Assembly: GCA_003599335.1 (NCBI GenBank)
Contig: QZJN01000001.1
Span: 6,167 to 70,166 of the forward strand
DNA from: Candidatus Parcubacteria bacterium
GTDB lineage: Bacteria; Patescibacteriota; Minisyncoccia; SURF-38
Direction: 5' to 3'
Length of the DNA stretch: 64,000 nucleotides
Part shown: piece after piece, positions 1 through 44,630 of the stretch
Layout of the letters: each line of letters starts with the position of its first letter
Numbering within the stretch: the first letter of the stretch is position 1
Translations under genes and position numbers: made by a program
The notes under the pieces: generated by a model
The model's database searches: none
What the model was told of the DNA's origin: nothing
What the model saw: the letters and a program-made list of their open reading frames with translations, nothing else

Positions 1-2
1 GC

Positions 3-17497: not shown

Positions 17498-19729
17498 ATG
17501 TACAACCAGCTTTCTTATCAAGGCAAGGTTTTGTTTTGGATAATAACCTCTTTGGTTTGGGCGCTTTTATTTGCGCCTTTTATTATTTCTTCACAGACAC
17601 TTTTTCCTTTTCAGGTCGGCAAGGCAATTTATTACAGGATTTTGGTTGAAATAATATTGTTTTTCTACGTCTGGTTGATATTGATTGAGCCGGCAGCCAG
17701 ACCCAAGATCAGTAAGCTTTTTTGGGCAGTTTTTATTTACCTTGGTATACTTTTGCTTTCAACGTTATTTAGTATTCACCCTTATCGTAGTTTTTGGGGA
17801 GATATTGAAAGGATGGAGGGGGTTTTTGGCATTTTGCACGGCGGAGCTTTGTTTTTAGTCCTTTTCAGTCTTTTCAGAAGAAAAGGCGATTGGCTTAAAT
17901 TTTTCAAAGTTTCTTTGTTTTTCAGTTTTTGGGTGGCTATTTATTCTTTACGTCAGAAATACGGATCCGGAGTTTTTGAGGCCGGTTCGATACAGCCGGG
18001 ATCAACTCTTGGCAATCCGGCTTTTAACGCGACGTATGTTTTGTTTCAGATGTTTTTTGCAGCGATCATTTTTTGGTGGGATCGCAATGTTTGGTGGAGA
18101 CTTTATGCCGTTTCGGCTTTTGTCTTGAATTTTATAGTTTTAATACTCACGGCCATAAGGGGAGCGCAGGTCGGTCTTTTTGCCGCTTTAGTGGTTATGG
18201 TTATTTTACTCGCAATTTATTGCACCCGTTCTGCAAGGGCAAGGGTGGCCACCGCAGCTATTCTTGTTGGTTTGTTTTTGATACCAACCGCATTGTTTTT
18301 AGGGAGAGACTCCGGGTGGATAAAAAGTATGCCGCTTGCTTTTCAGCGTTTAGCCAATATATCTCTTGAAAGAGACGCCACATTGAATACGCGCATTATT
18401 TCTTTAGGAATATCTTGGGATGCATTTAAGGAAAACCCAATTTTAGGTTATGGGCCAGAGCATTTTAGAGTTGGCTATAACAAATATTTCAATCCAAAGC
18501 ATTTAACTTTTGAGCAAGCTTGGTTTGATCGAGCACATAATAAAATTTCCGATGTTTTAGTTATGACGGGGGGACTTGGTCTTATAAGTTATCTTGCAAT
18601 TTTTGCTTTGGGTTTTTTGGGCCTCATTGGGTATATAAGACGCTCAGAACAGCAAAGAGATAGAGTTTTGGGAAGCTTGGTTGTCGGTCTTGGTGTTGCC
18701 TATTTTGTTCAAAATATATTCCTTTTTGATATGCCAATGAGTTACATTCTTTTCTTTTCAAGTTTGGCATTTGTTGGGTATTTAACCGATTCAAATAATT
18801 CCCAAAATCAACAAATTGAAGGCTCCAAAAAAGGACCAACCGGATCGTTAAAATCTGTTCATTATTTAATTTTGATAGTCGTTGGGGCTGGGGTGATTAT
18901 TGCCATAGGTTGGGGCAACTGGAAGCCCTATAACACCTCTTATTGGGGTAGGCAGGGTCTTGGAGCTGCAACGCCACAGCAAAGTTTGGATGGTTATAAA
19001 AAAGCCCTTGAATCTGGGGGTTATCCAGCTTCGGAGGTTTTGAGGGTTATGACGGATACCCTTTTGAATTCCGGTGGGGCGCGTTTAGTCGAGTGGAATG
19101 AATTATTTTATTACACAACCAATGAGATGGAAAAGTTTCTGGCAATAGAGCCCCTTGATCCGAGACAATTTATTCGTTTAGGAAAAGTTTACAACGAACA
19201 TACTGCCTTGGAGCCCCAATACACCAAAGACGCCGAAGAAGCCCTTCTTAAAGCTATTGAGCTTGCTCCAAAGCGCCCAGACGCTTATTACGAGCTTGGG
19301 GTGACTTATCTGCAAAGAAACGAAACCGAAGCCGGCCTTGCTTTGTTTCGTAAAGCTTCAGAATTTAATCCCGATAATGCTAGGGGGCATTGGACTTTAG
19401 GTTTGGCATTGATGATAGTTCAAAGGTTTGACGATGGTGTTAGAGAAATAGAGAAAGCCATTGAACTTGGTTATGAGTGGCGAACGCCGGCTGACATGAA
19501 TAATCTAGCAAGAATTTATGGAGTGGTTGGTCGTTTTGATAAGGTTGCCGAGGTTTATGAAGCGGCGATTGAAATTTATTCAAACGAACCAAGTTATCAC
19601 GCAAATTTAGCGAGTGTTTACAGACAACTTGGCAGGCTTGAAGAGGCAAAAAGAGAAGCTCAAAGAGCAGCCGAGCTTGATCCAAATTTTAAAGCAGAAG
19701 CAGAGAAGTTTATTCAAGAGCTTCAATAA
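17498..19729 (+). CDS. Polytopic O-antigen ligase/polymerase-like (Wzy_C family) membrane protein with C-terminal TPR repeats.
   Basis: Ten or more TM helices in the first ~450 aa, including the Wzy_C-like loop region. The C-terminal ~250 aa hold TPR-like repeats (AYYELGVTYLQRNE, ARGHWTLGLALM, YHANLASVYRQLGRLEEA). Confidence 0.7.
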   Translation: MYNQLSYQGKVLFWIITSLVWALLFAPFIISSQTLFPFQVGKAIYYRILVEIILFFYVWLILIEPAARPKISKLFWAVFIYLGILLLSTLFSIHPYRSFWGDIERMEGVFGILHGGALFLVLFSLFRRKGDWLKFFKVSLFFSFWVAIYSLRQKYGSGVFEAGSIQPGSTLGNPAFNATYVLFQMFFAAIIFWWDRNVWWRLYAVSAFVLNFIVLILTAIRGAQVGLFAALVVMVILLAIYCTRSARARVATAAILVGLFLIPTALFLGRDSGWIKSMPLAFQRLANISLERDATLNTRIISLGISWDAFKENPILGYGPEHFRVGYNKYFNPKHLTFEQAWFDRAHNKISDVLVMTGGLGLISYLAIFALGFLGLIGYIRRSEQQRDRVLGSLVVGLGVAYFVQNIFLFDMPMSYILFFSSLAFVGYLTDSNNSQNQQIEGSKKGPTGSLKSVHYLILIVVGAGVIIAIGWGNWKPYNTSYWGRQGLGAATPQQSLDGYKKALESGGYPASEVLRVMTDTLLNSGGARLVEWNELFYYTTNEMEKFLAIEPLDPRQFIRLGKVYNEHTALEPQYTKDAEEALLKAIELAPKRPDAYYELGVTYLQRNETEAGLALFRKASEFNPDNARGHWTLGLALMIVQRFDDGVREIEKAIELGYEWRTPADMNNLARIYGVVGRFDKVAEVYEAAIEIYSNEPSYHANLASVYRQLGRLEEAKREAQRAAELDPNFKAEAEKFIQELQ

Positions 19730-20897
19730 TAAGCTCGCTGAATTGTTGAACCATCAGTTCAATTGAAAATTGGCTCGTTTTATTGTAAGCCTCTTGGGCC
19801 AACACTTGGCGGTAATTTTTATCGCTCAGCAATGATAACATTGCCTGTTCCAAGGCTTCGTTATCGGCCGGTTCTATAAGCAGGCCATTTTTTTTATCTT
19901 CTATTATTTCGGGAATGCCGCCTACGGCGGTGGCTATTATGGGTAATTTTGCCGCCATTGCTTCTATTATTGTCCAAGGAGAACCTTCTTTTAGGGACGG
20001 AAGAACAAAAACATCAAACGCTTTAAGATAAGAAGCTGCATTTGGGATGGCCCCCTTTAATTCAAAAAGATTGTTCAAATCGCGAACGTTTATTTTGCCC
20101 TCGATAAGTTTTTTTTCGGGGCCATCTCCGATTATGACAAAAAGAAGATTTTCTCTTAAAGCAGGGTTTCGTTCAAGTAGATAAAAAGCAGAGTTAACAA
20201 GATTATCCAGGCCCTTATTTCTATAAAAATTGGCAATGGTTCCTATAACGGTTTTGCCTTTGGTTTTTAAGCCCAATTTATTTCTGGCTTCGTCGCGTTC
20301 GTAAAGTATTTTTTGGAAAGTTTTTAAATCTATTCCGTTGCGCACGAGCCTTAATTTATCGGGGTTGGTTATTTTTTTATCTATAGCCAAATCAAAGTTA
20401 TTTTGAGAATTAACGATGATAATATCTTTCAGCCACGATGTTGATTTTTCTATCCAAAGATAGACTAACTTGCGGAGACGACTTAAATCTTCTGTAAAAG
20501 CGAAACCTCCGATTCTGTAAAAAACCTTTAATTTTTTTCCACCAATAATTTTATGGATAATCGAAGCTAAGGACCCGTAAAATCCAGCCTTGGTGCTTAA
20601 AAGGAAAAATATATCAGGACATTCCGATTTTAATAATTTTATTATTTTCAAAAAGGCCCCAATATCTTTTAGGGGAGAAAAATGGGAAGAGGTAAGGTTT
20701 GGAATATTTACAAAACGTATCCCGTTTTTCTGGAGTTCTCCCATGATGTAGCCTTTACCCCCGGCTGCAACCACAATTTCAATTTCCGGATAGGATTTGA
20801 CAAAACGGGGTAAAAATTCGATCAAAAACCTCTGCGCCCCTCCCCAGTCTGACTCGGTTATTAAAAAAACTATTTTTCCTGTTATTTCAAGCTTCAT
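19710..20897 (-). CDS. Glycosyltransferase, GT-B fold (GT4/GT1 family).
   Basis: C-terminal EX7E-type motif region PSLKEGSPWTIIEAMAAKLPIIATAVGGIPEII. The N-terminal domain is GT4-like. Confidence 0.8.
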   Translation of the reverse strand: MKLEITGKIVFLITESDWGGAQRFLIEFLPRFVKSYPEIEIVVAAGGKGYIMGELQKNGIRFVNIPNLTSSHFSPLKDIGAFLKIIKLLKSECPDIFFLLSTKAGFYGSLASIIHKIIGGKKLKVFYRIGGFAFTEDLSRLRKLVYLWIEKSTSWLKDIIIVNSQNNFDLAIDKKITNPDKLRLVRNGIDLKTFQKILYERDEARNKLGLKTKGKTVIGTIANFYRNKGLDNLVNSAFYLLERNPALRENLLFVIIGDGPEKKLIEGKINVRDLNNLFELKGAIPNAASYLKAFDVFVLPSLKEGSPWTIIEAMAAKLPIIATAVGGIPEIIEDKKNGLLIEPADNEALEQAMLSLLSDKNYRQVLAQEAYNKTSQFSIELMVQQFSELIIEALE

Positions 20898-21072: not shown

Positions 21073-22911
21073 ATGTGCGGTATAGCGGGTATTTTTAATA
21101 CATCACAAGAAAAAATCAGCCCAGATATTATTCGGGCGATGATAAAGCCGATTATTCACCGAGGCCCAGATAATCAGGATTTTTTTCATGATGGTAATAT
21201 CGCTCTGGGCAGCGCAAGGCTTTCGATTATAGATCTTAAAACCGGCGACCAGCCGGTGTTTAATGAGGATGGCACGATTGCCATAGTCTTTAATGGGGAG
21301 ATTTATAACTTTCATGAAATAAGAGAACGTTTGTTGAAAAAGAACCATTTCTTTAAAACGGCAAGCGACACAGAGACGATTGTTCATTTATACGAAGAAG
21401 TCGGGACTAATTGCCTTTCTGAATTAAACGGCATGTTCGCTTTTGCACTCTGGGATAAAAATAAAGAGAGGCTTTTTGTAGCAAGGGACAGATTGGGAGT
21501 TAAGCCCCTTTACTGGACTTTTCAAAATGGAACTTTTCTTTGCGGTTCAGAGATAGATGCTTTGTTTGGGGGGCTTAATGTAAAACCCGATTTTAATACT
21601 GATTCTTTAGCTTTTTATTTTACTTATGGATTTATTCCTGCCCCACTTACCATTTATAAAGAGATTTTTAAATTGGAGCCTGGGCATTTTCTGACAATTG
21701 ATAAATTCGGTGTTAAAAAACAAAGGTACTGGCAAGCGCCAAGAGAAATTAATAATAATTTTGAACAAGAAGAAATAGCTCCGACAATTTATAAACTGAC
21801 AAAAGATGCTGTTGAGCGGAGGTTAATTTCCGATGTTTCTTTGGGGGCTTTTTTAAGCGGGGGGTTTGATTCCAGCGTTGTTGTCGGTTTTATGAAAGAG
21901 TTGGCTGGTTCAGCCGAAACTTTCAGCATTGGGTTTGAGGGAGTGGGATTTTTTAACGAATTACCTCAAGCCAAAATGGTCGCAAAATATTTTGGGGTTA
22001 AAAATAACAGCGAAGTAATAAGTCAGAAAACCATAAAGGAATTAATCCCCGAAGTTCTTTCTGAAATTGATGACCCGTTTGCCGATTCTTCAATAATTCC
22101 AACCTTTTTGTTATCCAAAATAACAAGAAAGAAAGTTAAGGTTGCTTTGTCGGGCGATGGGGGAGACGAAATTTTTGTCGGCTACAACAAATATAGAGGG
22201 CATATTTTTGGTAGGAATTCATTAGTTGGTCTTCTTTCAAAGGCTGCATCTTTTTTGCCAGTAAGCAGAGAGAGTCGTTTTGGCGAATTGATTCGTAAGG
22301 CAGAAAAATTCAGGCAGGGATCTTCATCATCTTTGGCAGAGAGGCATTTTATATGGACATCAATTTTTTCAGAAACGGACAAACTTTTAATAGGTTTGAA
22401 ATTACATCCCAAAAAAGAATATCTCTCATTTTTTAAGGAGGAAGGATCTTTGGAAGAAGCTTTGCTTGTCGATTTGGAGTTTTCTTTGCCAAATGACATG
22501 CTCACAAAAGTTGATTTGGCAAGTATGTGGAATTCTCTGGAAGTCAGATCTCCTTTCTTGGATTATAGGCTCTGTGAGTATATGTTTAGGATTCCAGCTT
22601 CAATTCGGTTTAAAAACGGCAAATTGAAAAATCTCGGGAAACTCGCTTTTGAAAGTTTGTTGCCAGATTTCGTTTTAAATTACAGAAAGCAGGGATTTGA
22701 AATCCCCATTGGAGAATGGTTCCGCCAGGATTTGGGGAAAAGTCTTTTGGATTTAATGGGTGGAGCAAAAACACAGTGGGGAGGGATAATTAATTTTAAC
22801 GAGGTGGACAGATTGTTTGCAGAACATAAAAATAAAAAGGCAGATAATTCAAAAATTTTATGGGCTCTTTATACTTTATTTTTTTGGTCCATAAAAAATA
22901 AACACCCATGA
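21073..22911 (+). CDS. asnB: Asparagine synthetase B-type glutamine amidotransferase (copy 1 of 2).
   Basis: N-terminal MCGIAG (Cys2 Ntn nucleophile). GATase-2 domain. PP-loop SGGxDSS (LSGGFDSSVVV) in the synthetase domain. Confidence 0.85.
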   Translation: MCGIAGIFNTSQEKISPDIIRAMIKPIIHRGPDNQDFFHDGNIALGSARLSIIDLKTGDQPVFNEDGTIAIVFNGEIYNFHEIRERLLKKNHFFKTASDTETIVHLYEEVGTNCLSELNGMFAFALWDKNKERLFVARDRLGVKPLYWTFQNGTFLCGSEIDALFGGLNVKPDFNTDSLAFYFTYGFIPAPLTIYKEIFKLEPGHFLTIDKFGVKKQRYWQAPREINNNFEQEEIAPTIYKLTKDAVERRLISDVSLGAFLSGGFDSSVVVGFMKELAGSAETFSIGFEGVGFFNELPQAKMVAKYFGVKNNSEVISQKTIKELIPEVLSEIDDPFADSSIIPTFLLSKITRKKVKVALSGDGGDEIFVGYNKYRGHIFGRNSLVGLLSKAASFLPVSRESRFGELIRKAEKFRQGSSSSLAERHFIWTSIFSETDKLLIGLKLHPKKEYLSFFKEEGSLEEALLVDLEFSLPNDMLTKVDLASMWNSLEVRSPFLDYRLCEYMFRIPASIRFKNGKLKNLGKLAFESLLPDFVLNYRKQGFEIPIGEWFRQDLGKSLLDLMGGAKTQWGGIINFNEVDRLFAEHKNKKADNSKILWALYTLFFWSIKNKHP

Positions 22912-24050
22912 GTTTCAATCAAAAGGGCGAAAAAAAGAGAATTTTGATTGTTTCTACTGCTTATTTACCTCTAATTGGTGGGGCTGAACTTGCGGTTAGA
23001 GAAATTACCGACCGTCTGGGCGACAACTATGATTTTAGTCTAATCTGTGCCAGATTAGACTCAAAACTTCCCTCAAAAGAAAGGATTGGATCGGTCGCAA
23101 TTGAAAGGGTTGGGTTTGGTTCTTCCTTTGATAAGATCATTTTGCCGTTTGCTGTTTTTCTGAAAGCCTTTAGAGAGAAAAGGCCAGATGTTTTATGGGT
23201 TATCATGGCTGTGCAGGGAGCCTTTGGAGCATTATTTTTTAAGATTGTAAGGCCTAAAACAAAAATGTTATTAACGCTGCAGGAGGGAGATCCGGAAGAA
23301 CTTATTTTAAAAAAGATAGGTATATTTTATCCGTTGTGGCGCCAAATTTTCAGACGCGCAGATTACATTCAAGTTATTAGCAGATATCTTAAGAATTTTG
23401 CCATTCGGCATGGCGCCGTAACGACCATTGAGGTTATTCCCAATGGGGTGGATTTTCAAAAAATTAAAAACACTTCTGTCTTCAAAAAATTTAAAGCTAA
23501 AAAGAACGAAGCTTTGATAATTAGCACATCACGCTTGGCCTACAAAAACGGTATGGATACTCTTATTGAGGCTATGGGCATTTTAGTTGCTGATGGGCAT
23601 AGGGATTTGAGACTTGCTATAGCCGGCAGCGGGCCAGACGAGTCCAAATTGCGAGACTTAGCCAAAAGGCTTAAGATTGAAAGTTTTGTTGATTTTCTTG
23701 GTTTAATAGAACCGGATGATGTTGCTTCTTTTCTAAAAGCCGGTGATGTATTTGTCCGTCCTTCCAGAGCCGAGGGTCTTGGGAGTTCTTTTTTAGAGGC
23801 TATGGCGGTAGGATTGCCTGTTATCGGAACAAGGGTTGGCGGGATACCAGATTTTTTGGAAGATCAAAAAACAGGTCTTTTTTGTAAGGTTGATGATCCT
23901 AAAGATTTAGCATCTAAAATAAAGCTCTTGTTATCAAATAAGAAGCTTTATGAAAATATAGCGTTGGGCGGTAAAAATTTAGTTGACTCAAATTATGATT
24001 GGAGTAATATTGCTATGCGAATGAAAAAAATATTCGATTCAATGACATGA
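22908..24050 (+). CDS. Glycosyltransferase, GT4 family.
   Basis: Motif region PSRAEGLGSSFLEAMAVGLPVIGTRVGGIPDFL. Start overlaps the asnB stop (ATGA coupling). Confidence 0.8.
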   Translation: MSFNQKGEKKRILIVSTAYLPLIGGAELAVREITDRLGDNYDFSLICARLDSKLPSKERIGSVAIERVGFGSSFDKIILPFAVFLKAFREKRPDVLWVIMAVQGAFGALFFKIVRPKTKMLLTLQEGDPEELILKKIGIFYPLWRQIFRRADYIQVISRYLKNFAIRHGAVTTIEVIPNGVDFQKIKNTSVFKKFKAKKNEALIISTSRLAYKNGMDTLIEAMGILVADGHRDLRLAIAGSGPDESKLRDLAKRLKIESFVDFLGLIEPDDVASFLKAGDVFVRPSRAEGLGSSFLEAMAVGLPVIGTRVGGIPDFLEDQKTGLFCKVDDPKDLASKIKLLLSNKKLYENIALGGKNLVDSNYDWSNIAMRMKKIFDSMT

Positions 24051-25144
24051 AGATCGCAGTAGTAGGAGCTGGGATTTTTGGCGTTACGGCGGCCACAAGA
24101 TTGGCCAAAAGTGGTCATTCCGTTGATTTATTCGAAAAACACGGCGATATCTTGCAGGCAGCTTCCGGTATAAATCAGTTCAGGCTCCATAGGGGATATC
24201 ATTATCCAAGAAGCCCAGAAACAATAAGAGAATCTTTATCAGCTCAAGAGTCTTTTGCCGGTGAATATAGGCCAGCTATTATTGATGATTTTGATCATCA
24301 TTATTGTATTGCTAAAGAAAAAAGTTTTGTTTCCGGGGACCAATTTATGAAAACATGTTTGGAGTATGGACTTGAACATGAACATTGCGAGTTGGGATTA
24401 GTCAGCGATACGAAGGTTGGCGCTAAGTTAAAGGTTAAAGAGTCTCTCGTTGATTTAGAAAAGTTAAAAGAGCTTTGCTGGAAAAAATTAAACGCATCAA
24501 GAGTTAGAGTTTTATTGAACACCAAGGCTGACGCTCAGTCTATCAAAAAATATGATTTTATTGTTTTGTGCATGTACGCAGATAATAATGAGTTTACAGA
24601 GAGCCTTGGAATACCGTCTCAAGATTATCAATATGAACTTTGTGAGAAAATAGTTATAAAGCTACCCGATCAGTTTAAGAATAAAAGCATAGTTATAATG
24701 GATGGACCATTTATGTGCGTTGATCCTTTTGGAAAGACAAATTTGTTTTTGATGGGCAACGTCGTTCATGCAATTCATCATAGTAATGTCGGTAAGCACC
24801 CGGAAATACCATCTGAATTTATACCCTTGTTAAATCGAGGGGTAATTAAAAATCCACCCATAACGAACTTTTCTTTATTTATAGATTCAGCCGCCGAGTT
24901 TATTCCTGCGATAAAACAAGCCGAGCATGTCGGTTCTATGTATACTGTCAGAACAGTTTTGGCTAACGTTGATAAAACAGATAAAAGACCAACTTTGGTT
25001 GATAGGGTTGCTCCAAATATAGTAAGGGTTTTTTCTGGTAAAATAGGAACTTGCGTTCAGGCAGCCCAAGAAGTTGAAAGAATAATCAACGAAATGGAAG
25101 GGGTTGAAAAGAGGGTGGCTAACGAGAGGGTTGCTTTATCTTAG
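24047..25144 (+). CDS. FAD/NAD(P)-binding Rossmann-fold oxidoreductase.
   Basis: N-terminal dinucleotide-binding motif MKIAVVGAGIFGVTAATRLAKSGHSVDLFEK (GxGxxG). The substrate is not inferable. Confidence 0.5.
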   Translation: MKIAVVGAGIFGVTAATRLAKSGHSVDLFEKHGDILQAASGINQFRLHRGYHYPRSPETIRESLSAQESFAGEYRPAIIDDFDHHYCIAKEKSFVSGDQFMKTCLEYGLEHEHCELGLVSDTKVGAKLKVKESLVDLEKLKELCWKKLNASRVRVLLNTKADAQSIKKYDFIVLCMYADNNEFTESLGIPSQDYQYELCEKIVIKLPDQFKNKSIVIMDGPFMCVDPFGKTNLFLMGNVVHAIHHSNVGKHPEIPSEFIPLLNRGVIKNPPITNFSLFIDSAAEFIPAIKQAEHVGSMYTVRTVLANVDKTDKRPTLVDRVAPNIVRVFSGKIGTCVQAAQEVERIINEMEGVEKRVANERVALS

Positions 25145-27207: not shown

Positions 27208-27935
27208 ACCCGAAAGTTTTGGTTGTGCAAAAAATAGAGACTTTTATAACCCCAAATAAGCCATTCAGAATTCTTGAGCTTGGAGTTGGCTCAACAACCC
27301 CATTTGAATATTTAGTTAAAAAATATCCTCTTGTCGAATACGTTGGAGTTGAGCCGATTGGATTTGGCCCAAAAGACAGCCTTAAGGATTTTAGGAAATT
27401 AGCGAATGTAAAGTTTTTTAATCAATTTGGGGAGGAAAGACTTAGGGCGTATACAGCTGGTTATTTTGATGTTTGCGCTTCTTTTAGCGTTTTAGAACAT
27501 GTTAAAAATCTTGAAGCTTTTTTAAAAAACAGCATTGATTATGTTAAAACCAATGGTCGTATTGTTCATTTTTATGATCGCGGTCATTCAATGAGGCCGT
27601 CTTCTTTTAGAGAAAGGCTTCATGTTTTTTTTGGAAATTATTTGCCGTTTTTGCTTCCGGCCAAAAAGTTTGTGCGTCATCTTGATGAAAAAAAAGTTGA
27701 TAATTTGATCAGAAAATACGGGACGGAAATTGAAGAAATCACTTATCATAATATGCCAGATCATAAGCAGTTTATTAAGAATTTGGATAGAAATGACAGT
27801 TTATCTAAGAAACTTGCGGCCGATTTGTCGAGTTGGGAATTTTTAGTTTCAAAATATGTCAGGGCAATGCCAGACGATATTCGAGAAAGATTCTTTTTAA
27901 GCGTTTGTTTTTGGGCTAAAAAGAAAATCACATGA
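27204..27935 (+). CDS. Class I SAM-dependent methyltransferase.
   Basis: Motif I-like ILELGVGSTTP. Motif FDVCASFSVLEHV is typical of Methyltransf_11/23. Coupled by ATGA overlap. Confidence 0.6.
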   Translation: MNPKVLVVQKIETFITPNKPFRILELGVGSTTPFEYLVKKYPLVEYVGVEPIGFGPKDSLKDFRKLANVKFFNQFGEERLRAYTAGYFDVCASFSVLEHVKNLEAFLKNSIDYVKTNGRIVHFYDRGHSMRPSSFRERLHVFFGNYLPFLLPAKKFVRHLDEKKVDNLIRKYGTEIEEITYHNMPDHKQFIKNLDRNDSLSKKLAADLSSWEFLVSKYVRAMPDDIRERFFLSVCFWAKKKIT

Positions 27936-36946: not shown

Positions 36947-37711
36947 TTATTTTGGGATGGCTTCACACCAAAATTCACCCCACCTAGATTCAACATATTT
37001 AATTTTAAGGCCCGCTTGGCTTAATTCGGCCTCAAGGGTTTCTGGCGTGTATTCAATGAAGTGAGTATTATCGAGCCTGGAATCAATACCAAGTTCGTCC
37101 ATTAGAGGTACAAGCCATTCTCTGTCGTATCTTGGTATTCGTAAGAGCCAGCGCTTGGGCCTTAGTTGCGCCTGGGCTTTTTTGAGAAAACCAACTCTAT
37201 CTTTAAAATGTTCAAGGACATTGGACATAACCGCGGTATCAAAGGTTTCGTTGGGGAGGCTTTTTAGGGCATCCCCAAGAATATAAGTTACCAAAGGATG
37301 TGAAAATTCTTTTTCCGCCTGTTTTAGATTTTTAGGAGAAAGTTCCATGCCAACAACCCTAGCCTTGCCATGTTTGGCCATATCATATGCTAAAGCGCCT
37401 ATGCCAGAACCGATATCTATTACTCGTTCTTCTGGTTTTAGTCTGGAATAAAAAAAACGATGATAATCCATCAGGCGATGTTTTGGATGAACCCCTTTGT
37501 TATAGCGGGTTGCCTGGAAGCTTATTTGTTCCTGTAAAAATTTATACATCATTGTTAAGAGATGTACTCCATCCTTTGGTTTTAGGCCCCAGGAGATTTC
37601 TTTCCAAAGAATCAATGATAGTTTTGCTATTCGTTCCGCAACCGGCAGTTTGATTACTCTTGAGGCTGCAGAGGCGGATTTTCTGATTAAAAATTGTATG
37701 ATTCTTTTCAT
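36947..37711 (-). CDS. Class I SAM-dependent methyltransferase.
   Basis: Motif I VIDIGSGIGALAYDMAKHG. Motif DTAVMSNVLEHF. Confidence 0.7.
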   Translation of the reverse strand: MKRIIQFLIRKSASAASRVIKLPVAERIAKLSLILWKEISWGLKPKDGVHLLTMMYKFLQEQISFQATRYNKGVHPKHRLMDYHRFFYSRLKPEERVIDIGSGIGALAYDMAKHGKARVVGMELSPKNLKQAEKEFSHPLVTYILGDALKSLPNETFDTAVMSNVLEHFKDRVGFLKKAQAQLRPKRWLLRIPRYDREWLVPLMDELGIDSRLDNTHFIEYTPETLEAELSQAGLKIKYVESRWGEFWCEAIPK

Positions 37712-37717: not shown

Positions 37718-39499
37718 TTATATTTTATTTAAAAGCTTTTCGTTGCCAGGAGCAACAAACAATTCATTATTGATCAAAACCATATCCAGTTTTGTTTTTG
37801 TCAACATTTCCAACCCCACGGAGCAATAATTTAGTATTGGCTCTCCGGCCGGGTTGAAGGATGTATTTAACAAAATTGGAACGCCGGCTATTTTTTCAAA
37901 AGCCTTTAGGGTGTCGTACAAGAATTGATTATGAGGTCGTCTTACTGTTTGTATCCGAGCCGAGCCGTCAACGTGGGTTATGGATGGTAATTTTTTCTGC
38001 CACTCCGGTTTTGTATAACATATGACAGACATATAAGGCACATCATTTTGAGCCGTAAAATATTTATGAGAATCTTCGGCGGTTACAACCGGAGCAAAAG
38101 GACGATACCATTCTCTATGCTTCACTTTATCGTTTAAAATATCACGCATATCCGGATTTAACGGATTGCATAAAATAGAGCGATTCCCTAAGGCTCTTGG
38201 CCCGACTTCGTAGCGGCCTCTTATAACTCCGACAATGATGTCTTGCGATAACAGTTTGGCAAGAATATCTGGGAGATTTTTTTCATCAATAATCTTGCTT
38301 GGGTATTGGTTTTTTAGCTTTGGCAGTTCTGCTAAATCAAAAGCTTCAAGACCAAGGTAGGGAGAAAAATACTCCCCGTAGCCATTGAATTTTTCGCCGG
38401 AAATTTTCCAATAGGTGTGAAGCGCGGCTCCTGAAGCAAGGCCACAATCTGTTGGATTTGGCAGAAAGTGAATATTTTTAAACATCCCAGATTGTTCTAT
38501 CGCATAATTTGTTATTCCGTTTAGAGCACATCCTCCTATAACACAAAGGTTTTCGGAGACTCCTTCACATTTTTTTAGGAGTTTAAGAACTTCATCTGTC
38601 CAGGCGTGCTGGACGGTTTGGGCTAAATCCTGGGCATCTTTATTGTCTAGGTTCGGGAATTCAAAATTTTTATTTGAAACTCTTCCTAAAAATTGATAAG
38701 AGAACCATTTAAACCAACTAAGTGAATCTGGTTTTGAGGTTGGCCTTGTGTATTTAGAAAGTTCAGGAATATCCGCAAGGGCGACGGCATTTGAACGGAA
38801 AAATTTTCCATAACTATTTAATTCTTTATTTGGATTATCAAGGTAGGGTAGTTTAAGGTATTTTTCGATGTATTTTTTGGCGTAGGGCAGCCATTCTTTT
38901 CGTACTTGGCCATAAGAACAAAGCCCCATTGTCTTGCCGGAAGTTGTGCCGCAAATTTCAGGTTTTATTCCCAGGAGATATCCAAGATTGTTGTAATTCT
39001 TTCCAAATTCAATTGAATTATTTTCCAAATATTTTAATCCCGAAGCGTTGTCTGCAGAAAATACAATTGTGTGGCCGTCATTGCCCGAGCCGTCATAGCT
39101 TAGTATAAGAGCCTTGGTAAATGGCGACGTATAGAAAGCAAGAGAGCCGTGGCTTAGATGATGATCAATGTGGTTAAAATTTAACCATGAGAAGCCCAAT
39201 TTCTTTAAAATTATCTTAAAATTTTCAAATTCTTCTTTTCTGCCTTGGTTTTGTACTGCTATAGCATCAAAGTTTTTACCCCACCTTGGCGTAAGCTCGT
39301 TTTTTAAAAAGGACTCAAGCTCGGCTGTATCTACATACTGAAAGGTGCTTTGGATTTTTTTTGGTTCAAGTGTAAGACAATTTAGTTTATAACGTTTTCT
39401 CCTAAAATATCTTTCGGCTTCTATTGCGGCTTTTACCTTACCATCTTCAACGATGGCAAAATTTGTATCATGTCCAAGCGATATGCCAAGAACTTTCAT
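37718..39499 (-). CDS. Carbamoyltransferase of the NodU/CmcH/TobZ family.
   Basis: N-terminus MKVLGISLGHDTNFAIVEDGKVKAAIEAERYFRRKRYK matches the family N-terminal ASKHA-fold signature (ILGIS..HD.aAaLv.DG.iv.A..EER..R.K). The ~590-aa length is typical. Confidence 0.8.
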   Translation of the reverse strand: MKVLGISLGHDTNFAIVEDGKVKAAIEAERYFRRKRYKLNCLTLEPKKIQSTFQYVDTAELESFLKNELTPRWGKNFDAIAVQNQGRKEEFENFKIILKKLGFSWLNFNHIDHHLSHGSLAFYTSPFTKALILSYDGSGNDGHTIVFSADNASGLKYLENNSIEFGKNYNNLGYLLGIKPEICGTTSGKTMGLCSYGQVRKEWLPYAKKYIEKYLKLPYLDNPNKELNSYGKFFRSNAVALADIPELSKYTRPTSKPDSLSWFKWFSYQFLGRVSNKNFEFPNLDNKDAQDLAQTVQHAWTDEVLKLLKKCEGVSENLCVIGGCALNGITNYAIEQSGMFKNIHFLPNPTDCGLASGAALHTYWKISGEKFNGYGEYFSPYLGLEAFDLAELPKLKNQYPSKIIDEKNLPDILAKLLSQDIIVGVIRGRYEVGPRALGNRSILCNPLNPDMRDILNDKVKHREWYRPFAPVVTAEDSHKYFTAQNDVPYMSVICYTKPEWQKKLPSITHVDGSARIQTVRRPHNQFLYDTLKAFEKIAGVPILLNTSFNPAGEPILNYCSVGLEMLTKTKLDMVLINNELFVAPGNEKLLNKI

Positions 39500-39500: not shown

Positions 39501-40322
39501 TTATTTGAAGCAATGGTAAACGACGTGCGGGACGTCTGTGTTGGTTTTGAAATTTTTCAGATTGAATCTCGAAACAATTTCAACCTTTGAAAACCCGCTT
39601 GCCAACGCGAGTTTTTTGAAAGCCTCTGGGGAAAAGTGAAAGAAAGTTCCACCCCTGTCTCCCCAATAAGTTACAATCCTATCTTTAAAAGAAGGGCTTA
39701 GATTTAAAAGTTTGAGCCACCAATTGGCTTTTTTTGATCCCGACAATGTTGCAAGGGTTATTATGCAAAGTTTTTTTGTTGCAAGATACAACTGCTCCGT
39801 TGCTTCTACGGGGTTTTTTAGGTGTTCAATCAGGTCTCCGCAAAAAACAAGGTCAAATGATCGTTTTAAGTTAACGAGATCGTATATTGAGTAATTTTGA
39901 TAATTTATAGAAGAGTTAAGAAGTTTTTTGGCCATTAAAATGAGGTGGACTTCTTTAAGGCCAAGTCTTTTTGCTAAGCCTAAAAATTTTGAATTTTGAT
40001 TCTGTCGAGAGAGATACTTTTCATCAAACGACTTTATTTGTCCTAAAGAAGGGGATATTGCCGTTGTGCCATCAGATTTGTTTGTATCAACCGCCAATAC
40101 TTCTTTGGCGCCTTTTTTTTCAAATTCAAACGAAAAGAATCCATCGGCACATCCAACGTCCAAAACACTCATTTCTTTAAGGGATTGGGGTATTTTATAA
40201 AAGCGAAGATGTTCCCTGTGGTCATAAACCCCTTTTGAGGTTAGGCCCTTTGGAAATTCTAAGGTGTGGTACCACGTTGCGTTTTCCAAGAAACTTTTTA
40301 TTTCGTCTTCTTTTATATCCAT
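39501..40322 (-). CDS. Class I SAM-dependent methyltransferase.
   Basis: Motif I VLDVGCADGFFSFEFEKKGAKEVLAVD. Motif DLVFCGDLIEHL. Confidence 0.65.
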   Translation of the reverse strand: MDIKEDEIKSFLENATWYHTLEFPKGLTSKGVYDHREHLRFYKIPQSLKEMSVLDVGCADGFFSFEFEKKGAKEVLAVDTNKSDGTTAISPSLGQIKSFDEKYLSRQNQNSKFLGLAKRLGLKEVHLILMAKKLLNSSINYQNYSIYDLVNLKRSFDLVFCGDLIEHLKNPVEATEQLYLATKKLCIITLATLSGSKKANWWLKLLNLSPSFKDRIVTYWGDRGGTFFHFSPEAFKKLALASGFSKVEIVSRFNLKNFKTNTDVPHVVYHCFK

Positions 40323-40325: not shown

Positions 40326-41006
40326 TTATTTTAAAAAGGTAAGGCCGTATCCGGTAGTCCAGGCTTGCAGAGATTCTGCTTTACATTTTTTATCAAGCCA
40401 CATAAGTATTTTCAGGAAAGGATTTTCAAATATGCGGCGGATTATTTTTTTAAAAATAATACCAATTGAACTTGTTGTTGGCGCGAGGAATAAGTGCTGC
40501 ATTGCAAGGGCTAAAACGGCAAAGATTGTGCCTTGTTTTTCTATTTCAGCTTTGGAAAATCCAGTTTTTAGGGCAGCCTCTAGCCAGTAATTTTCTGTAT
40601 AGCGTCCAAAGTCATAAGGATCGGCGTGTATAGGATACATAAAGGGGGTGGTGGCTAGCAATACTCCTCCTTTTTTTAGTAATCTGTTAGCTTCTTTCAA
40701 AACCTCCATTGGCTCTGCTACGTGTTCTAAAAGTTCTCCCATAATGGCAATGTCACAGGACTCATCTGCTAAGGGTATGTTCGAAGCATCGGCGACAATA
40801 TCCGGCTTTGATCTTGGATCAAGGTTCACATAAATAACTTTTGCTCCGTAAGAATCTATGTTAAATAATCCGCGCTTTTTATCACGCTTGCCGCCAATGT
40901 CAATTATCTGGGAAGTTTTGTTTATAAAACCTCTTTTTGCGAAGAAAAATTCATCAATGAAATGTCTTCGGACGGAAAAAGATAAAGAAGTTCTTTGTTT
41001 TCTCAT
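40326..41006 (-). CDS. Class I SAM-dependent methyltransferase.
   Basis: Motifs IIDIGG, IAIMGELLEHV and GGVLLATTPF. Start moved to MRKQRTS (41006), which abuts the flippase stop. Confidence 0.6.
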   Translation of the reverse strand: MRKQRTSLSFSVRRHFIDEFFFAKRGFINKTSQIIDIGGKRDKKRGLFNIDSYGAKVIYVNLDPRSKPDIVADASNIPLADESCDIAIMGELLEHVAEPMEVLKEANRLLKKGGVLLATTPFMYPIHADPYDFGRYTENYWLEAALKTGFSKAEIEKQGTIFAVLALAMQHLFLAPTTSSIGIIFKKIIRRIFENPFLKILMWLDKKCKAESLQAWTTGYGLTFLK

Positions 41007-42337
41007 TCTTTGTTTGAAGAAATTAAACGTCGAGATTCTATTTCCCAAATAATAATATTGGAAATGGCGGTTATAATATAAGAGGCAATAGAAGCTACAA
41101 CCAGCCCCCATATATGCCATCGCCATCCAAGGATTATAAAAAGTAAGATTCTTAAAGCCTGACTAATGATGCCATTGGCATAAAGAGCCCGCAGCATATT
41201 TTGTCCGTAAAAAACATTTCCTATGAAGATCGATGCAGGAACTACAATCAGTCCCAAGGCATAAACTTGAGAATATATAACGGCTTCAAGATATTGAGGT
41301 AAAAGCAGGTTGAATAGCAAGGGGCTTAAAATAATATACCCCAAAGCGAGGATGACCCCGACGAGTAAAGAGAAAGCAATGCGACGATAAAAAACAGAAC
41401 GGATTTCACCGATATTCTTTTCGGTTAAGCGGGGTAAAGATATGCTGGCCCAATTTTTTGCAAGACCCTTTAATCTTTCCGGTCCGGCAATAGCAAAACC
41501 ATAAATGGCCAGAGAAACAGGGCCCGCCGCTTGAAACAGAACTATTTTATCAAGGTATTGAGCCAAGGCTCCTATTATTCCAACGGCTGTAATATGAAAA
41601 CCGGTTCTTTTTAATTCGGAGATTGACTCTTGGTCCGGTTCTCCTTTTGTGAGAAATTTTTTTGTGTACAGATAAGCAATGATATTTGGTACAAGATTTA
41701 CCAGTGAGTATATCGAGATGATGGTAATGATATTTTTTGTATAAAAAAGAGCAATGATTGTTATTACTGCCGCTACAAAAGAGGAAATACCCCCAACCAA
41801 ACTTAAAAGATCAAAACGTTTTTTTCCTATAAAGACTGATTCGTATGTATGGTAAACGGCGCTTATCGGAACGGCAATTGCAAGCAATCCCAGAGATATC
41901 GCAAAAATTGCATTACCTTTAATTGCGTAATAGGCAGCTATGCCCCCAATGGCCACAACGGTAAATAAGTTATAGCGGAGTTGAAGTTTTATGGAGTAGG
42001 GCACAACGCTGTCTCTGCCCAAAGCAACAGCCCTTATCACGCTTGTGCCCATCCCGGTGAGGGTTAAAAAACCCAAAGAGCCGGCCAGTGAAAGAAGATA
42101 ATTGTATATGCCGTAGGTTTCTTTTGGAAGAAGATTACCGAAAGCTATCCCGGTTCCTATTGCCGCTATTATTCCTATTGTAAATCTTAGGGTTGTCCAA
42201 AATCCGCCCTTGGCTAGGTAGATGTTATCCATGCCGGTGTATCTTTGGGCGTCTATAAGTTTTTCCTTTAACCATCTCTTGACACCAGTACCCATAGTTG
42301 ATTTAAGATAGCATAGCGCTTGGTATTTTTCCAACAA
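41003..42337 (-). CDS. Wzx-type polysaccharide flippase (MOP/PST superfamily).
   Basis: 444 aa with about 12 TM helices throughout. Located in the glycan locus next to the priming transferase. Confidence 0.75.
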   Translation of the reverse strand: MLEKYQALCYLKSTMGTGVKRWLKEKLIDAQRYTGMDNIYLAKGGFWTTLRFTIGIIAAIGTGIAFGNLLPKETYGIYNYLLSLAGSLGFLTLTGMGTSVIRAVALGRDSVVPYSIKLQLRYNLFTVVAIGGIAAYYAIKGNAIFAISLGLLAIAVPISAVYHTYESVFIGKKRFDLLSLVGGISSFVAAVITIIALFYTKNIITIISIYSLVNLVPNIIAYLYTKKFLTKGEPDQESISELKRTGFHITAVGIIGALAQYLDKIVLFQAAGPVSLAIYGFAIAGPERLKGLAKNWASISLPRLTEKNIGEIRSVFYRRIAFSLLVGVILALGYIILSPLLFNLLLPQYLEAVIYSQVYALGLIVVPASIFIGNVFYGQNMLRALYANGIISQALRILLFIILGWRWHIWGLVVASIASYIITAISNIIIWEIESRRLISSNKE

Positions 42338-42363: not shown

Positions 42364-43281
42364 ATGTTAAATAAAAAACAAAAAGTTCTGGTAACGGGAG
42401 GGGCTGGATTCATTGGCTCTCATTTGGTTGATGCCCTCGTAAAAGAAGGTCATAAGGTTGTTGTGCTTGATAGTATGATAGGAGGTAAAAAAGACCATAT
42501 AAATCCAAAAGTTAAGTTTTATAAAGCGGATATCAGAAATCTAAATAAAATCAAACCGCTATTTAAAGGGATTGACTGCGTTTTTCACGTTGCTGCCGTG
42601 CCTAGGGTTCCTGTTTCTGTTAAATATCCAGAAATGACTCATCAGCATAATGCGGTCGGCACCCTGAATGTTTTAATTGCTGCCAGAGATGCCAAGGTGA
42701 AAAGGCTTGTTTATTCTTCTTCCTCGTCTGTTTACGGAGAACAAAATTCACTACCATTACATGAAGAAATGCCAACAAGGCCGATAAGTCCTTATGGTCA
42801 TCAGAAGTTAATAGGAGAACACTATTCCCGTATTTTCAGCCGTCTGTATGGTCTTGAAACGGTTATGCTGCGGTATTTCAATGTTTATGGTCCAAGACTT
42901 GATCCCAACGGCGCATACGCAATGGCAATCGGTAAGTTTTTAAAGCAGGCAAAAGAAAATCAACCACTAACTATTTTTGGTAATGGCAAACAAAGCAGAG
43001 ATTTTACCCACGTTAGAGATGTGGTTGGGGCAAATATATTAGCGATGAAATCAAAGCAGGTTGGAAAAGGAGAGGCTATAAATATAGGGGGAGGAAATAA
43101 CCATACGATTTTGGCTGTTGCAAAAATGATAAGCCCAAATTTAAAATTTTTGCCGCCCCGTCTTGGCGATCCGCTTCACACTTTAGCTTCCATAAAAAAA
43201 GCAAAAAAGCTTTTAGGTTGGCAACCCGAAGTTAAGTTAAGCGATGGTATAGAGGAGCTAAAGCAAATTATGCTTTCTTAG
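42364..43281 (+). CDS. NAD-dependent nucleotide-sugar epimerase/dehydratase (SDR, GalE/WbpP-like).
   Basis: Motif VLVTGGAGFIGSHLVDAL (GxxGxxG). Catalytic YxxxK (YGHQK). Confidence 0.85.
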   Translation: MLNKKQKVLVTGGAGFIGSHLVDALVKEGHKVVVLDSMIGGKKDHINPKVKFYKADIRNLNKIKPLFKGIDCVFHVAAVPRVPVSVKYPEMTHQHNAVGTLNVLIAARDAKVKRLVYSSSSSVYGEQNSLPLHEEMPTRPISPYGHQKLIGEHYSRIFSRLYGLETVMLRYFNVYGPRLDPNGAYAMAIGKFLKQAKENQPLTIFGNGKQSRDFTHVRDVVGANILAMKSKQVGKGEAINIGGGNNHTILAVAKMISPNLKFLPPRLGDPLHTLASIKKAKKLLGWQPEVKLSDGIEELKQIMLS

Positions 43282-44630
43282 CGTCCGGCTTGAGAGAGAA
43301 TTGTTTTTATAGTTTTTAATATAATCGCTAAATCAAGAATAAAAGATCTGTTCTTGATGTAATAAATTTCATATTGAAGTTTTTTGTAAGCTTCTTCAAG
43401 GGATGTACCAAAGATGTTGTTAATCTGGGCCCAGCCGCTTAAACCGGGCTTGATAAGATGGCGCGTTGAGTAATATTGTATCTGACTTTCAAATTGCGCA
43501 ACAAATTCTGGCCTTTCTGGTCTTGGTCCAACCAATGACAAATCTCCTTTAAGAAGTGACCAAAGTTGGGGTAATTCGTCTAATCTTGTTTTTCTTAACC
43601 AGCCTCCAATTCTTGTAACTCTGGGATCGTTTTCATCCGCAAATTGAGGGCCATTTTTCTCGGCGTCAACTTTCATGGTTCTGAATTTTTTTATTTCGAT
43701 GATTTTGTTGTTTTGTCCAACGCGTCTTTGCCTATAAAAAATTGGCCCGCCATCGTCTAATTTAATCGCAAGTATTATTAGGGGGTAAAAGATAAGAGAA
43801 ATAATGCCCCCAATAAGACCGGCAATAATATCTATGGTTCTTTTCATAAAATCATAAGGGCTTTTTATTTGGGTTGATATGTGTTGTAAGAACCATGCCT
43901 GTTTGACTATTGAGATTGGTATTTTGCCGGTTGTTGTTTCATAAAACTGCGCAGTGTCGTAGAATTTCACCCCCTTAAAGATGTGGCTAAAAAGCTTTGA
44001 GGTTTGTTTATCGTTGCTAAGATGGGCGACTATAGCGTCTACTTCGTTATTATTTATTAAATCCTCAAGTTTATTTAGCTTGTGAACTGTCATTTCTTTA
44101 ACTTCCGCCGGTTTGTTCGTAAAAATACCGACAATTTCATACCCAAATTGCGGATTGTTTTTAAAGCTTTTGATCAACTCTTTCGTCTCCTCGTTTATAT
44201 CTGTGAAAGCCAGTTTTTCTTTTAGCCAGCCACCGCCAACAATGGATCGGGTAAAAAGTCGCCAGAAGAAAAGTATAATGGTGGAAATGCCAAGAACAAG
44301 GAGTAGATTTGTTTTTGGGGTGATTATAAAGATTGGAAAAATATAAAACACCGTTATTGATATAAGGCCGTTTATTGCCTGGAGTCTGAAGAGTCTTTGG
44401 AGTATGCCGATTTTATTGCTCAAGGTGAGAGGGCTGTAAAGATCTCCTATATAAAAAGTTATGAGCCAGATAGAAAAAATAATTGTGAATGGCAAAAGAT
44501 GTATATTCCAAACCTCTTCATTTGGTTGAGATAAATAACGAAGCAATAAAGCAAGCCACAAAGAGACATATAGCAAAAATATATCCCCAGCGAACATTAA
44601 AAAGTTTTGAAAACGAGCCCTTGTTCTCAT
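43278..44630 (-). CDS. Polyprenyl-phosphate sugar-1-phosphate transferase (WbaP/CpsE-type 'bacterial sugar transferase').
   Basis: Four N-terminal TM helices. The C-terminal catalytic domain carries PIFYRQRRVGQNNKIIEIKKFRTM and DELPQLWSLLKGDLSLVGPRP, hallmarks of the family. Confidence 0.85.
   Translation of the reverse strand: MRTRARFQNFLMFAGDIFLLYVSLWLALLLRYLSQPNEEVWNIHLLPFTIIFSIWLITFYIGDLYSPLTLSNKIGILQRLFRLQAINGLISITVFYIFPIFIITPKTNLLLVLGISTIILFFWRLFTRSIVGGGWLKEKLAFTDINEETKELIKSFKNNPQFGYEIVGIFTNKPAEVKEMTVHKLNKLEDLINNNEVDAIVAHLSNDKQTSKLFSHIFKGVKFYDTAQFYETTTGKIPISIVKQAWFLQHISTQIKSPYDFMKRTIDIIAGLIGGIISLIFYPLIILAIKLDDGGPIFYRQRRVGQNNKIIEIKKFRTMKVDAEKNGPQFADENDPRVTRIGGWLRKTRLDELPQLWSLLKGDLSLVGPRPERPEFVAQFESQIQYYSTRHLIKPGLSGWAQINNIFGTSLEEAYKKLQYEIYYIKNRSFILDLAIILKTIKTILSQAGR

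Follow-up and report, generated by a model that had tools for sequence, protein, structure and literature searches.

We describe a glycan assembly locus at positions 17498-44630 of a 64-kb stretch of contig QZJN01000001.1 (hereafter the window), which comes from a Candidatus Parcubacteria bacterium of the candidate phyla radiation (CPR, or Patescibacteria). The locus is organized as a conserved backbone and replaceable cargo. The backbone comprises a candidate surface-layer (S-layer) protein (g00), a Wzy_C protein bearing tetratricopeptide repeats (Wzy_C-TPR, g01), a GT4 glycosyltransferase (GT; g02), a short-chain dehydrogenase/reductase (SDR; g22), and a polyprenyl-phosphate glycosylphosphotransferase (PGT; g23). 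The cargo, g03-g21, spans ~21.5 kb. The presence of a PGT, nine GTs, a Wzx flippase, and a Wzy_C protein supports interpretation of the whole as a coherent lipid-carrier glycan assembly locus. Tentatively, and with somewhat less than even confidence, we favor a model in which a decorated, lipid-linked oligosaccharide is flipped by Wzx and transferred en bloc by the Wzy_C-TPR protein to the S-layer-like g00.

The division into backbone and cargo emerged from comparison with relatives. An earlier interpretation drawn from the DNA alone (the sequence-only reading) had proposed comparing locus content for hypervariability, and the outcome was positive: homologs of g00 and g01 are kept and the cargo is unrelated in four close relatives. 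These were retrieved through their Wzy_C-TPR homologs at 68, 62, 55, and 52% identity (L018/L022, L019, L106, and L107). Three of the four retain a run consisting of HtrA, ClpB, a small protein, a ~1150-aa PG-binding protein, Wzy_C-TPR, and a GT4 on the minus strand, such that synteny of the left flank extends through g02. The fourth (L107), which lies at a contig end, keeps the PG-binding surface protein and Wzy_C-TPR, and no GT4 follows. By tblastn against L018 and L019, identity to the window was 75-80% for ClpB, 60-75% for g00, and 55-62% for g02; across all four relatives, g00 homologs were 45-78% identical, and L106 encodes a GT4 at the position of g02. The g01 homologs thus stand at 52-68% identity beside entirely different cargo. 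Genes downstream of the conserved run belong to other pathways and share at most 32% identity with the window. One relative carries an extra short Wzy_C protein, a second Wzy_C-TPR, an RfbT-like methyltransferase (MT), and a NeuB/CMP-transferase nonulosonic acid pathway; a second encodes a DegT aminotransferase, an acetyltransferase, and SDR amino-sugar genes; a third encodes two aminotransferases and a thiamine pyrophosphate enzyme. Because the backbone is conserved while the genes that follow it specify wholly different pathways, we regard the locus as a hypervariable cargo site.

Backbone pieces recur more widely in Patescibacteria, with g00-g01(-g02) together in close relatives and g01, GT4, and PGT, sometimes with the SDR, together in distant contigs. 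We sampled 80 deeply divergent metagenomic loci seeded on Wzy_C-TPR, among which this gene adjoins a PGT in 16, SecA in 15, and a g02-like GT4 in 12. GT4, PGT, and Wzy_C-TPR form an uninterrupted trio in L034, L038, and L048, and homologs of g01, GT4, and PGT are contiguous beside SecA/MurB in L034, L035, L038, L048, L067, and L090; a g02-like GT4 adjoins both PGT and Wzy_C-TPR in L034, L038, L048, L067, and L090. Homologs of g22, 53-56% identical, sit beside the PGT or GT4 in L031, L063, L067, L090, and L099. In another CPR contig, L035, the order Wzy_C-TPR...GT4-PGT...MurB-HPF-SecA joins both ends of the window locus and reproduces the order of its right flank; the window locus can therefore be described as the trio plus SDR, split by the cargo. 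We considered L035 as an empty site and rejected that description after Pfam scans revealed cargo of its own on the other side of Wzy_C-TPR, and only contiguity of the trio is claimed. The L035 cargo (1-9917) encodes a nonulosonic acid pathway (a NeuC-like 2-epimerase, two NeuB proteins, a PseB-like dehydratase, and a CMP-transferase), a PglK/MsbA-type ABC exporter takes the place of Wzx, and a 320-aa PG_binding_1 protein lies between Wzy_C-TPR and the GT4. A metagenome scan seeded with MurB retrieved nothing.

Gene content was established from a listing of open reading frames (ORFs), Pfam scans, and NCBIfam models with their cut-offs. The 23 ORFs of 17498-44630 bear the domains attributed to them by the sequence-only reading, whose inventory was matched exactly: eight GT4 and one GT2 enzymes, five MTs, a carbamoyltransferase, two AsnB-type proteins, an SDR, a Gfo/Idh/MocA protein, an FAD protein, Wzx, PGT, and Wzy_C+TPR. 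These genes, together with g00 and g24, are as follows.

13886-17350, plus strand: g00, surface protein of 1154 aa, 100% identical to RJQ14841.1 and upstream of the interval considered by the sequence-only reading
17498-19729, plus strand: g01, Wzy_C+TPR (Pfam Wzy_C 57.2 bits plus TPR families)
19710-20897, minus strand: g02, GT4, backbone, convergent with g01 (Glycos_transf_1 125 bits)
21073-22911, plus strand: g03, first AsnB-type glutamine amidotransferase (Asn_synthase 266 bits, GATase_7 158 bits)
22908-24050, plus strand: g04, GT4 (Glycos_transf_1 141 bits)
24047-25144, plus strand: g05, FAD/NAD(P)-binding protein (DAO 43 bits, N-terminal dinucleotide-binding motif only)
25119-26039, minus strand: g06, Gfo/Idh/MocA sugar dehydrogenase or ketoreductase (GFO_IDH_MocA 85.5 bits)
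26071-27207, plus strand: g07, GT4 (Glycos_transf_1 67 bits)
27204-27935, plus strand: g08, class I SAM MT (Methyltransf_23, _11, _12), with an ATGA overlap at either end
27932-29062, plus strand: g09, GT4 (Glycos_transf_1 122.5 bits)
29065-30966, plus strand: g10, second AsnB-type glutamine amidotransferase (Asn_synthase 335 bits)
30890-32008, plus strand: g11, GT4, module member (Glycos_transf_1 65 bits; likely true start, ATG at 30971)
32001-32921, plus strand: g12, class I SAM MT, module member (Methyltransf_25, _11)
32908-33906, minus strand: g13, GT2, module member (Glycos_transf_2 115.6 bits)
33812-34942, minus strand: g14, GT4, module member (Glycos_transf_1 61.6 bits)
34927-35877, minus strand: g15, short GT4-like protein with the C-terminal half domain only, module member (Glyco_trans_1_4 40 bits)
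35864-36946, minus strand: g16, GT4, module member (Glycos_transf_1 57 bits)
36947-37711, minus strand: g17, class I SAM MT, optional in the module (Methyltransf_23 62.6 bits)
37718-39499, minus strand: g18, NodU/CmcH/TobZ-family O-carbamoyltransferase (Carbam_trans_C 203.6 bits, Carbam_trans_N 99.9 bits)
39501-40322, minus strand: g19, class I SAM MT (Methyltransf_23 44 bits)
40326-41126, minus strand: g20, class I SAM MT, module member (Methyltransf_11 47.9 bits; true start probably internal)
41003-42337, minus strand: g21, polytopic Wzx-type (Polysacc_synt/MOP) flippase (PF01943 63.1 bits, cut-off 28.2)
42364-43281, plus strand: g22, SDR nucleotide-sugar 4-epimerase-like enzyme, backbone (Epimerase 230 bits)
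43278-44630, minus strand: g23, large PGT, backbone (Bac_transf 217 bits)
44735-45418, plus strand: g24, small TPR protein with one N-terminal transmembrane (TM) helix at 14-32 (TPR_19/TPR_16), beside the PGT

The window proteins are RJQ14841.1-RJQ14859.1 of a Candidatus Parcubacteria bacterium metagenome-assembled genome (MAG), in which g00 is RJQ14841.1, g01 is RJQ14842.1, and g18 is RJQ14859.1. This agrees with the earlier supposition of a small-genome organism. CPR genomes are ~1 Mb in size, so the locus amounts to a few percent of the genome.

The right-hand part of the cargo recurs as a sub-module. In 12 contigs of distant Patescibacteria, the genes of the block Wzx-MT(g20)-[MT]-carbamoyltransferase-GT4-GT4-GT4-GT2-[FAD/GFO]-MT-GT4 keep this order and are 38-63% identical to those of the window. 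Gene by gene, identities were 44-51% for g11 (L001-L009), 40-43% for g12 (L001-L011), 38-46% for g13, 38-56% for g14, 41-45% for g16, and 46-56% for the Wzx g21. Of the GTs in the module, g15 is the most conserved (55-63%, 13 loci), and g20 always sits between Wzx and the carbamoyltransferase (50-58%, 12 loci). Among module loci, homologs of g17 are limited to L008 and L015. The divergent neighbors g05 and g06 form a pair that is also conserved, with 51-53% and 32-42% identity, respectively, in L001, L009, L013, and L064. The carbamoyltransferase family returned at least 4,496 matches with a flat identity distribution at 54-62%, and the contigs of the closest relatives of the window are absent from the best 120 of these. 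In species-representative genomes, the carbamoyltransferase relatives come mostly from Patescibacteria MAGs, with few assigned to other phyla. The recurrence pattern looks like that of a shared, mobile module.

The sequence-only reading had described two convergent operons with many ATGA overlaps. The g07-12 and g13-21 blocks do dominate the layout, but there are eight strand blocks in total: g01 (plus), g02 (minus), g03-05 (plus), g06 (minus), g07-12 (plus), g13-21 (minus), g22 (plus), and g23 (minus). Similarly, ATGA overlaps are present at four junctions (g03/g04, g04/g05, g07/g08, and g08/g09), whereas other junctions have 8-16-nt overlaps or 0-6-nt gaps. The maximal ORFs of g11, g13, and g20 overlap the upstream neighbor by 77-124 nt (124 nt for g20/g21), and their true starts are probably internal ATGs. 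GC content is uniform within the locus (0.34-0.41) compared with 0.40-0.48 in the flanks. Neither direct or inverted repeats nor insertion sequence (IS) elements border the cargo block or the locus. These features bear on the alternative that the region is a mosaic of independent GTs acting directly on lipids or proteins, or an assembly chimera. Eight strand switches and cargo pieces common to different genomes could be read in that way; however, most junctions are tightly coupled (ATGA overlaps or gaps of at most 6 nt), the module order is preserved in 12 independent MAG contigs, composition is even, repeats and IS elements are absent from the junctions, both flanks are syntenic, and the same proteins are carried by a single public NCBI/JGI contig of 82.9 kb. 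We consider this alternative highly improbable, and no sign was seen of the chimeric assembly about which the sequence-only reading had cautioned.

The enzymes of the locus offer a view of the predicted glycan chemistry. The PGT g23, with N-terminal TM helices and a further TM segment at 268-286, had been called WbaP-type. It clears the threshold of the broad EPS_sugtrans model (TIGR03025; 365.6 bits, cut-off 295.55) but falls short of the WbaP (211 vs 403) and WcaJ (306 vs 411) cut-offs, so the WbaP-type label applies only loosely. The adjacent TPR protein g24 is a possible accessory. The O-methyl, carbamoyl, and amide decorations proposed earlier continue to be predicted, given intact MTs and TobZ/NodU-family and AsnB-type enzymes. 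Although g18 is annotated as a "hypothetical protein," it contains both the Carbam_trans_N (ASKHA/Kae1-like) and Carbam_trans_C (YrdC-like) domains. As in TobZ, NodU, and CmcH, the architecture is two-domain, and g18 aligns full-length to TobZ (3ven, residues 10-575, 1.5e-38), with the C-terminal half also matching 7xb6 (7e-47); its score of 176, however, is well short of the 1000 required by the NodU equivalog model. The substrate of g18 is presumably a glycan hydroxyl. The two AsnB-type proteins, g03 and g10, are 39% identical, and both begin with MCGIAG, including the Cys2 nucleophile, and display an SGG(F/V)DSS PP-loop. Both exceed the TIGR01536 cut-off of 267 (454 for g03, 500 for g10), and g10 scores 610 against the XrtA-associated TIGR03108, under its cut-off of 817. 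For the remaining enzymes, the best NCBIfam match of g06 was UDP-GlcNAc 3-dehydrogenase (102 bits, under the cut-off of 450), g22 scored 192 with the GalE model (cut-off 262) and 167 with TviC, and NCBIfam returned an equivalog-level name for none of the GTs or MTs. We could not equate g05 with UDP-galactopyranose mutase or a comparable enzyme, as permissive Pfam searches and a five-sequence profile against the Protein Data Bank (PDB) matched only the dinucleotide-binding motif; past the first ~55 residues, g05 has no match in Pfam or the PDB.

The identity of the final product hinges on g01, the sole Wzy_C protein and sole polytopic polymerase candidate in the locus. An AlphaFold 2 (AF2) model built with a 60-sequence alignment (pLDDT 94.7, pTM 0.91) contains 12 TM helices, of which TM9 and TM10 are separated by a large loop (269-348), followed by a basic linker modeled at low confidence, TM13 at 453-488, and a TPR superhelix of ~270 residues that extends to residue 742. 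Because TM13 follows a WaaL-like 12-TM core, the TPR domain would lie outside the membrane, next to the catalytic loop. Foldseek searches with the full model were dominated by TPR matches; for the TM core, WaaL (7tpg_B) was the best non-TPR match, with a TM-score of 0.64 on the target. A sequence search of the TM domain against the PDB returned nothing, and the family profile alone reached WaaL (7tpg, 2.7e-15) and a chain named "Oligosaccharyltransferase" (OTase; 9rmk_A, 5.5e-10). Two residues, R299 and H347, are invariant throughout the g01 family, and a third, R221, is almost so. These correspond to the catalytic Arg/Arg/His set reported for WaaL (R215/R288/H338) and PglL (R224/R298/H349) (PMC3643930). 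As modeled, g01 is a WaaL-fold enzyme with an outward TPR arm and conserved catalytic residues. It resembles WaaL (7tpg/7tpj) and PglL-type OTases in the 12-TM fold and the Arg/Arg/His residues on outward-facing loops, but differs in the addition of TM13 and the TPR superhelix, in residing in an organism that lacks a lipid A-core acceptor, and in having no detectable PglL_A domain. Beyond the Wzy_C core, g01 has no sequence-level relation to any characterized OTase. From gene context rather than fold or profile, we propose that g01 is a glycan ligase or O-OTase, with Wzy polymerase as the rival assignment.

That rival assignment underlies the Wzx/Wzy-dependent heteropolysaccharide predicted by the sequence-only reading. 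Worked out as a capsule, exopolysaccharide, or wall polysaccharide, such a product would have g01 as its repeat-unit polymerase and an integral co-polymerase or scaffold in the TPR domain, and enzymes encoded elsewhere would mediate release or attachment. Such a polymer was not established. The sole Wzy_C protein belongs to the backbone, and the window contains no second multi-TM polymerase candidate; a Pfam search of every ORF of at least 120 aa in the 64 kb found no members of the Wzz/PCP (polysaccharide co-polymerase), CpsC/D, or LCP families. We nonetheless take this alternative seriously, while considering it somewhat unlikely. PGT, Wzx, and Wzy_C in one cluster are the canonical signature of such systems, and many Gram-positive Wzy proteins match PF04932. 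An MT can also cap chains, as in S-layer and O8/O9 systems (PMC2943079). By comparison with Wzx/Wzy O-antigen and capsule clusters, the locus shares a PGT, Wzx, and Wzy_C and a variable, low-GC cargo at a fixed chromosomal site, but lacks Wzz/PCP, OPX (outer-membrane polysaccharide export), and LCP proteins, and its Wzy_C is conserved rather than variable. Polymerases normally track the repeat-unit structure, whereas g01 retains 52-68% identity where the glycan genes are unrelated; conservation of that kind would be surprising in a repeat-unit-specific polymerase. In addition, nine GTs are many for a repeat unit, and the extra short Wzy_C protein of some relatives better suits the polymerase role.

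The Wzy_C-TPR gene is often tandemly duplicated in CPR contigs (L018/L022, L105, L031, L033, L036, L073, L087, and L094-L096). Beside the long form, L018/L022 and L105 encode a short Wzy_C of 440-446 aa that has no TPR; where present in these relatives, the short protein is additional to, rather than a replacement for, Wzy_C-TPR. Such pairs hint at a division of labor between a polymerase and a ligase/OTase. One further contig, L030 (Ga0172379_10003506), has a mirror-image arrangement, g00-WzyC-WzyC / WzyC-WzyC-g00, with the same statistics for high-scoring segment pairs on both arms, which is probably a fold-back assembly artifact rather than a real palindrome.

The candidate acceptor, g00, is encoded 147 bp upstream of g01 on the same strand. 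It contains a signal/TM segment at 12-36, a short coiled coil, and PG_binding_1 at 89-130, and in the AF2 model (pLDDT 84.9) a helical anchor leads into about nine β-sandwich domains. The protein is acidic, devoid of Cys, and composed of 22% Ser+Thr and 12% Ala. The family returned 259 matches of 1100-1550 aa from Parcubacteria, Jorgensenbacteria, Uhrbacteria, Veblenbacteria, and Microgenomates; in several of these proteins, SLH (PF00395) takes the place of PG_binding_1. An S-layer-type composition and architecture, along with SLH-bearing homologs, make g00 a candidate S-layer protein. Computational S-layer protein predictions exist in the literature for the phylum, and S-layers have been seen on CPR cells by cryogenic transmission electron microscopy (10.1101/2020.05.14.094862). 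Immediately upstream of Wzy_C-TPR, a g00 homolog is encoded in each of the five closer relatives (L018, L019, L105, L106, and L107) and, on the same strand, in 11 of the 80 divergent loci. Counted strictly among the 47 loci that have 3 kb or more of sequence on that side, the number is 7. The same adjacency is found in a Jorgensenbacteria contig. Genes for O-OTases frequently adjoin the target gene (PMC3643930). A promoter and terminator scan of the g00-g01 spacer performed no better than shuffled controls.

The wall-binding modules of the g00 family also bear on a different acceptor, in which g01 would ligate the flipped glycan to peptidoglycan or a membrane glycolipid of a monoderm-like CPR envelope, yielding a secondary wall glycopolymer bound by g00 and its SLH relatives. 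The closest solved relative of g01 is the lipid-A-core ligase WaaL, the GT4-PGT-Wzy_C-TPR trio adjoins murB/secA in many CPR contigs, and g00 homologs possess PG_binding_1 or SLH wall-polymer-binding modules, all consistent with this possibility. Conversely, we found no literature precedent for a Wzy_C enzyme that ligates to peptidoglycan, a task carried out by LCP enzymes in known monoderms; TPR arms are typically protein-binding, and WsfB, which has the same architecture as g01, is assigned to protein transfer. We therefore judge a wall or lipid acceptor to be quite unlikely.

WsfB, the predicted S-layer O-OTase of Paenibacillus alvei, consists of Wzy_C with a C-terminal TPR; the slg clusters use a WbaP-like initiator, and the TPR protein WsaA adjoins WsaB (PMC2943079). 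The slg loci of P. alvei and Geobacillus stearothermophilus (PMC2943079) resemble the present locus in encoding a WbaP-like PGT, a run of GTs, and an MT, in a GC content under the genome average, in overlapping start and stop codons, and in a Wzy_C transferase with a TPR (WsfB) or a TPR neighbor (WsaB), paralleled here by g24 beside the PGT. The Geobacillus S-layer gene is close by, as is g00. Those loci differ in using Wzm/Wzt ABC export to produce processive polymeric glycans, whereas Wzx is present here and Pfam detected no ABC transporter in the locus. A 27-kb O-glycosylation cluster in Tannerella forsythia encodes wzx, five Gtfs, three Mtfs, asnB, and sugar-nucleotide genes and builds an S-layer O-decasaccharide (PMC6120980). 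It is likewise ~27 kb, similar in content, and strain-variable, and its decasaccharide, complex and methylated, is carried by S-layer proteins; however, T. forsythia is a diderm Bacteroidete with an unidentified OTase and no carbamoyltransferase, and what the cluster specifies is limited to the outer, species-specific portion of a glycan built on a conserved core. Because this S-layer cluster has similar gene content, content alone does not discriminate between the readings considered here, and a complement of nine GTs and one PGT could suit one large oligosaccharide just as readily as a repeat unit.

Under our preferred model of S-layer glycosylation, g23 would prime polyprenyl phosphate, and as many as nine GTs, acting at the cytoplasmic face, would then lengthen the chain into an oligosaccharide of at most about ten sugars. 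The SDR, GFO, and FAD enzymes would tailor precursors. Decoration with O-methyl (five MTs), O-carbamoyl (g18), and carboxamide or amidino groups (two AsnB paralogs) could take place at the nucleotide-sugar or lipid-linked stage, after which Wzx would flip the decorated lipid-linked product. With little or no polymerization, g01 would then move the glycan en bloc to Ser/Thr/Tyr of an extracytoplasmic protein, most likely the adjacent S-layer-like g00. We infer the acceptor, en bloc transfer as opposed to polymerization, and the chemistry of each decoration; the gene content, the g01 fold and topology with its conserved catalytic residues, the backbone/cargo division, and the hypervariability are what the analysis showed. 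The S-layer glycan, which the sequence-only reading mentioned in passing, is better supported than a polymerized polysaccharide, with the S-layer status of g00 itself a prediction.

Several observations weigh against this model. Fold and profile do not separate ligase, OTase, and polymerase, and Wzy_C includes true polymerases. With the g01 profile, WaaL outscores the OTase chain (59 vs 42 bits), and PglL_A (PF15864) was not detected in g01 at E ≤ 1e-3 by Pfam scan; PilO likewise lacks the PglL flanking motifs (PMC3643930). Foldseek of g00 retrieved only generic multi-Ig arrays, among which an archaeal S-layer protein ranked 49th, a result of no diagnostic value. The g00-Wzy_C-TPR link is recurrent rather than universal, since two g00 homologs have no Wzy_C within 8 kb. 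The g00-g01 adjacency is also embedded in the longer conserved run HtrA-ClpB-x-g00-g01 and may stem from inherited synteny rather than functional coupling. Finally, other parts of the genome could encode a polymerase, a regulator of chain length, or an LCP ligase.

Other parts of the window contain features of separate interest. A full-length LOOT RNA (RF03000, 87.9 bits) at 53680-53799 on the plus strand lies between two gene groups. On one side (50163-53575) are a large serine recombinase (50163-51755, minus strand) and two ORFs without Pfam matches; on the other (54220-59236) is a type I restriction-modification operon, hsdR-hsdM-hsdS. GC content rises to 0.44-0.48 and AT skew falls to -0.2 at 50-53 kb. 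Lying just past secA, this region may be an integrated element. A 967-aa ORF without a Pfam match (59417-62320) follows the restriction-modification operon, and a SET-domain protein (62867-63397) is encoded near the window end. At the opposite end, six co-directional ORFs (9-6563, plus strand) specify proteins that are secreted or anchored in the membrane and nearly devoid of Pfam matches, including a Cohesin domain in 4378-5778 and, as the first ORF, a Thr/Ser/Gly/Asn-rich repeat protein. This group looks like a second surface-structure operon, upstream of SIMPL-RNaseH-like-HtrA-ClpB.

All of the enzyme families in the locus were known previously, and glycan clusters of such composition are common. 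Our analysis adds the setting in CPR, the division into backbone and cargo, a conserved family of outward-facing Wzy_C-TPR proteins, and a named neighboring S-layer candidate. None of these was met in our literature searches, which found no description of this CPR cluster, of a CPR glycoprotein, or of a characterized CPR Wzy_C-TPR. The CPR bacteria are ultra-small, mostly uncultivated episymbionts whose surface mediates host attachment and phage exposure. To our knowledge, none of their S-layer proteins or surface glycans has been characterized. Here, ~27 kb of a roughly 1-Mb genome is devoted to one glycan, and the locus offers a testable triad: the S-layer candidate RJQ14841.1, the Wzy_C-TPR transferase RJQ14842.1, and hypervariable glycan cargo. 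Were the polymer alternative correct, the locus would represent another variable capsule or O-antigen-like cluster. If instead our preferred model of en bloc transfer to g00 holds, it would provide glycoproteomic targets and a candidate family of relaxed-specificity O-oligosaccharyltransferases, and would explain strain-level diversity of CPR surfaces. A broader and more doubtful extension is that the Wzy_C-TPR/PGT/GT4 trio, often beside a ~1150-aa, wall-anchored Ig-repeat protein, constitutes an ancestral, phylum-wide machine for S-layer O-glycosylation in Patescibacteria, with the TPR arm recognizing the S-layer protein and a plug-in cargo site downstream. In that event, lineages would swap whole glycan pathways, the window would represent the methyl/carbamoyl/amide-decorated version, and the S-layer glycan would be the main variable determinant of host attachment and phage recognition.

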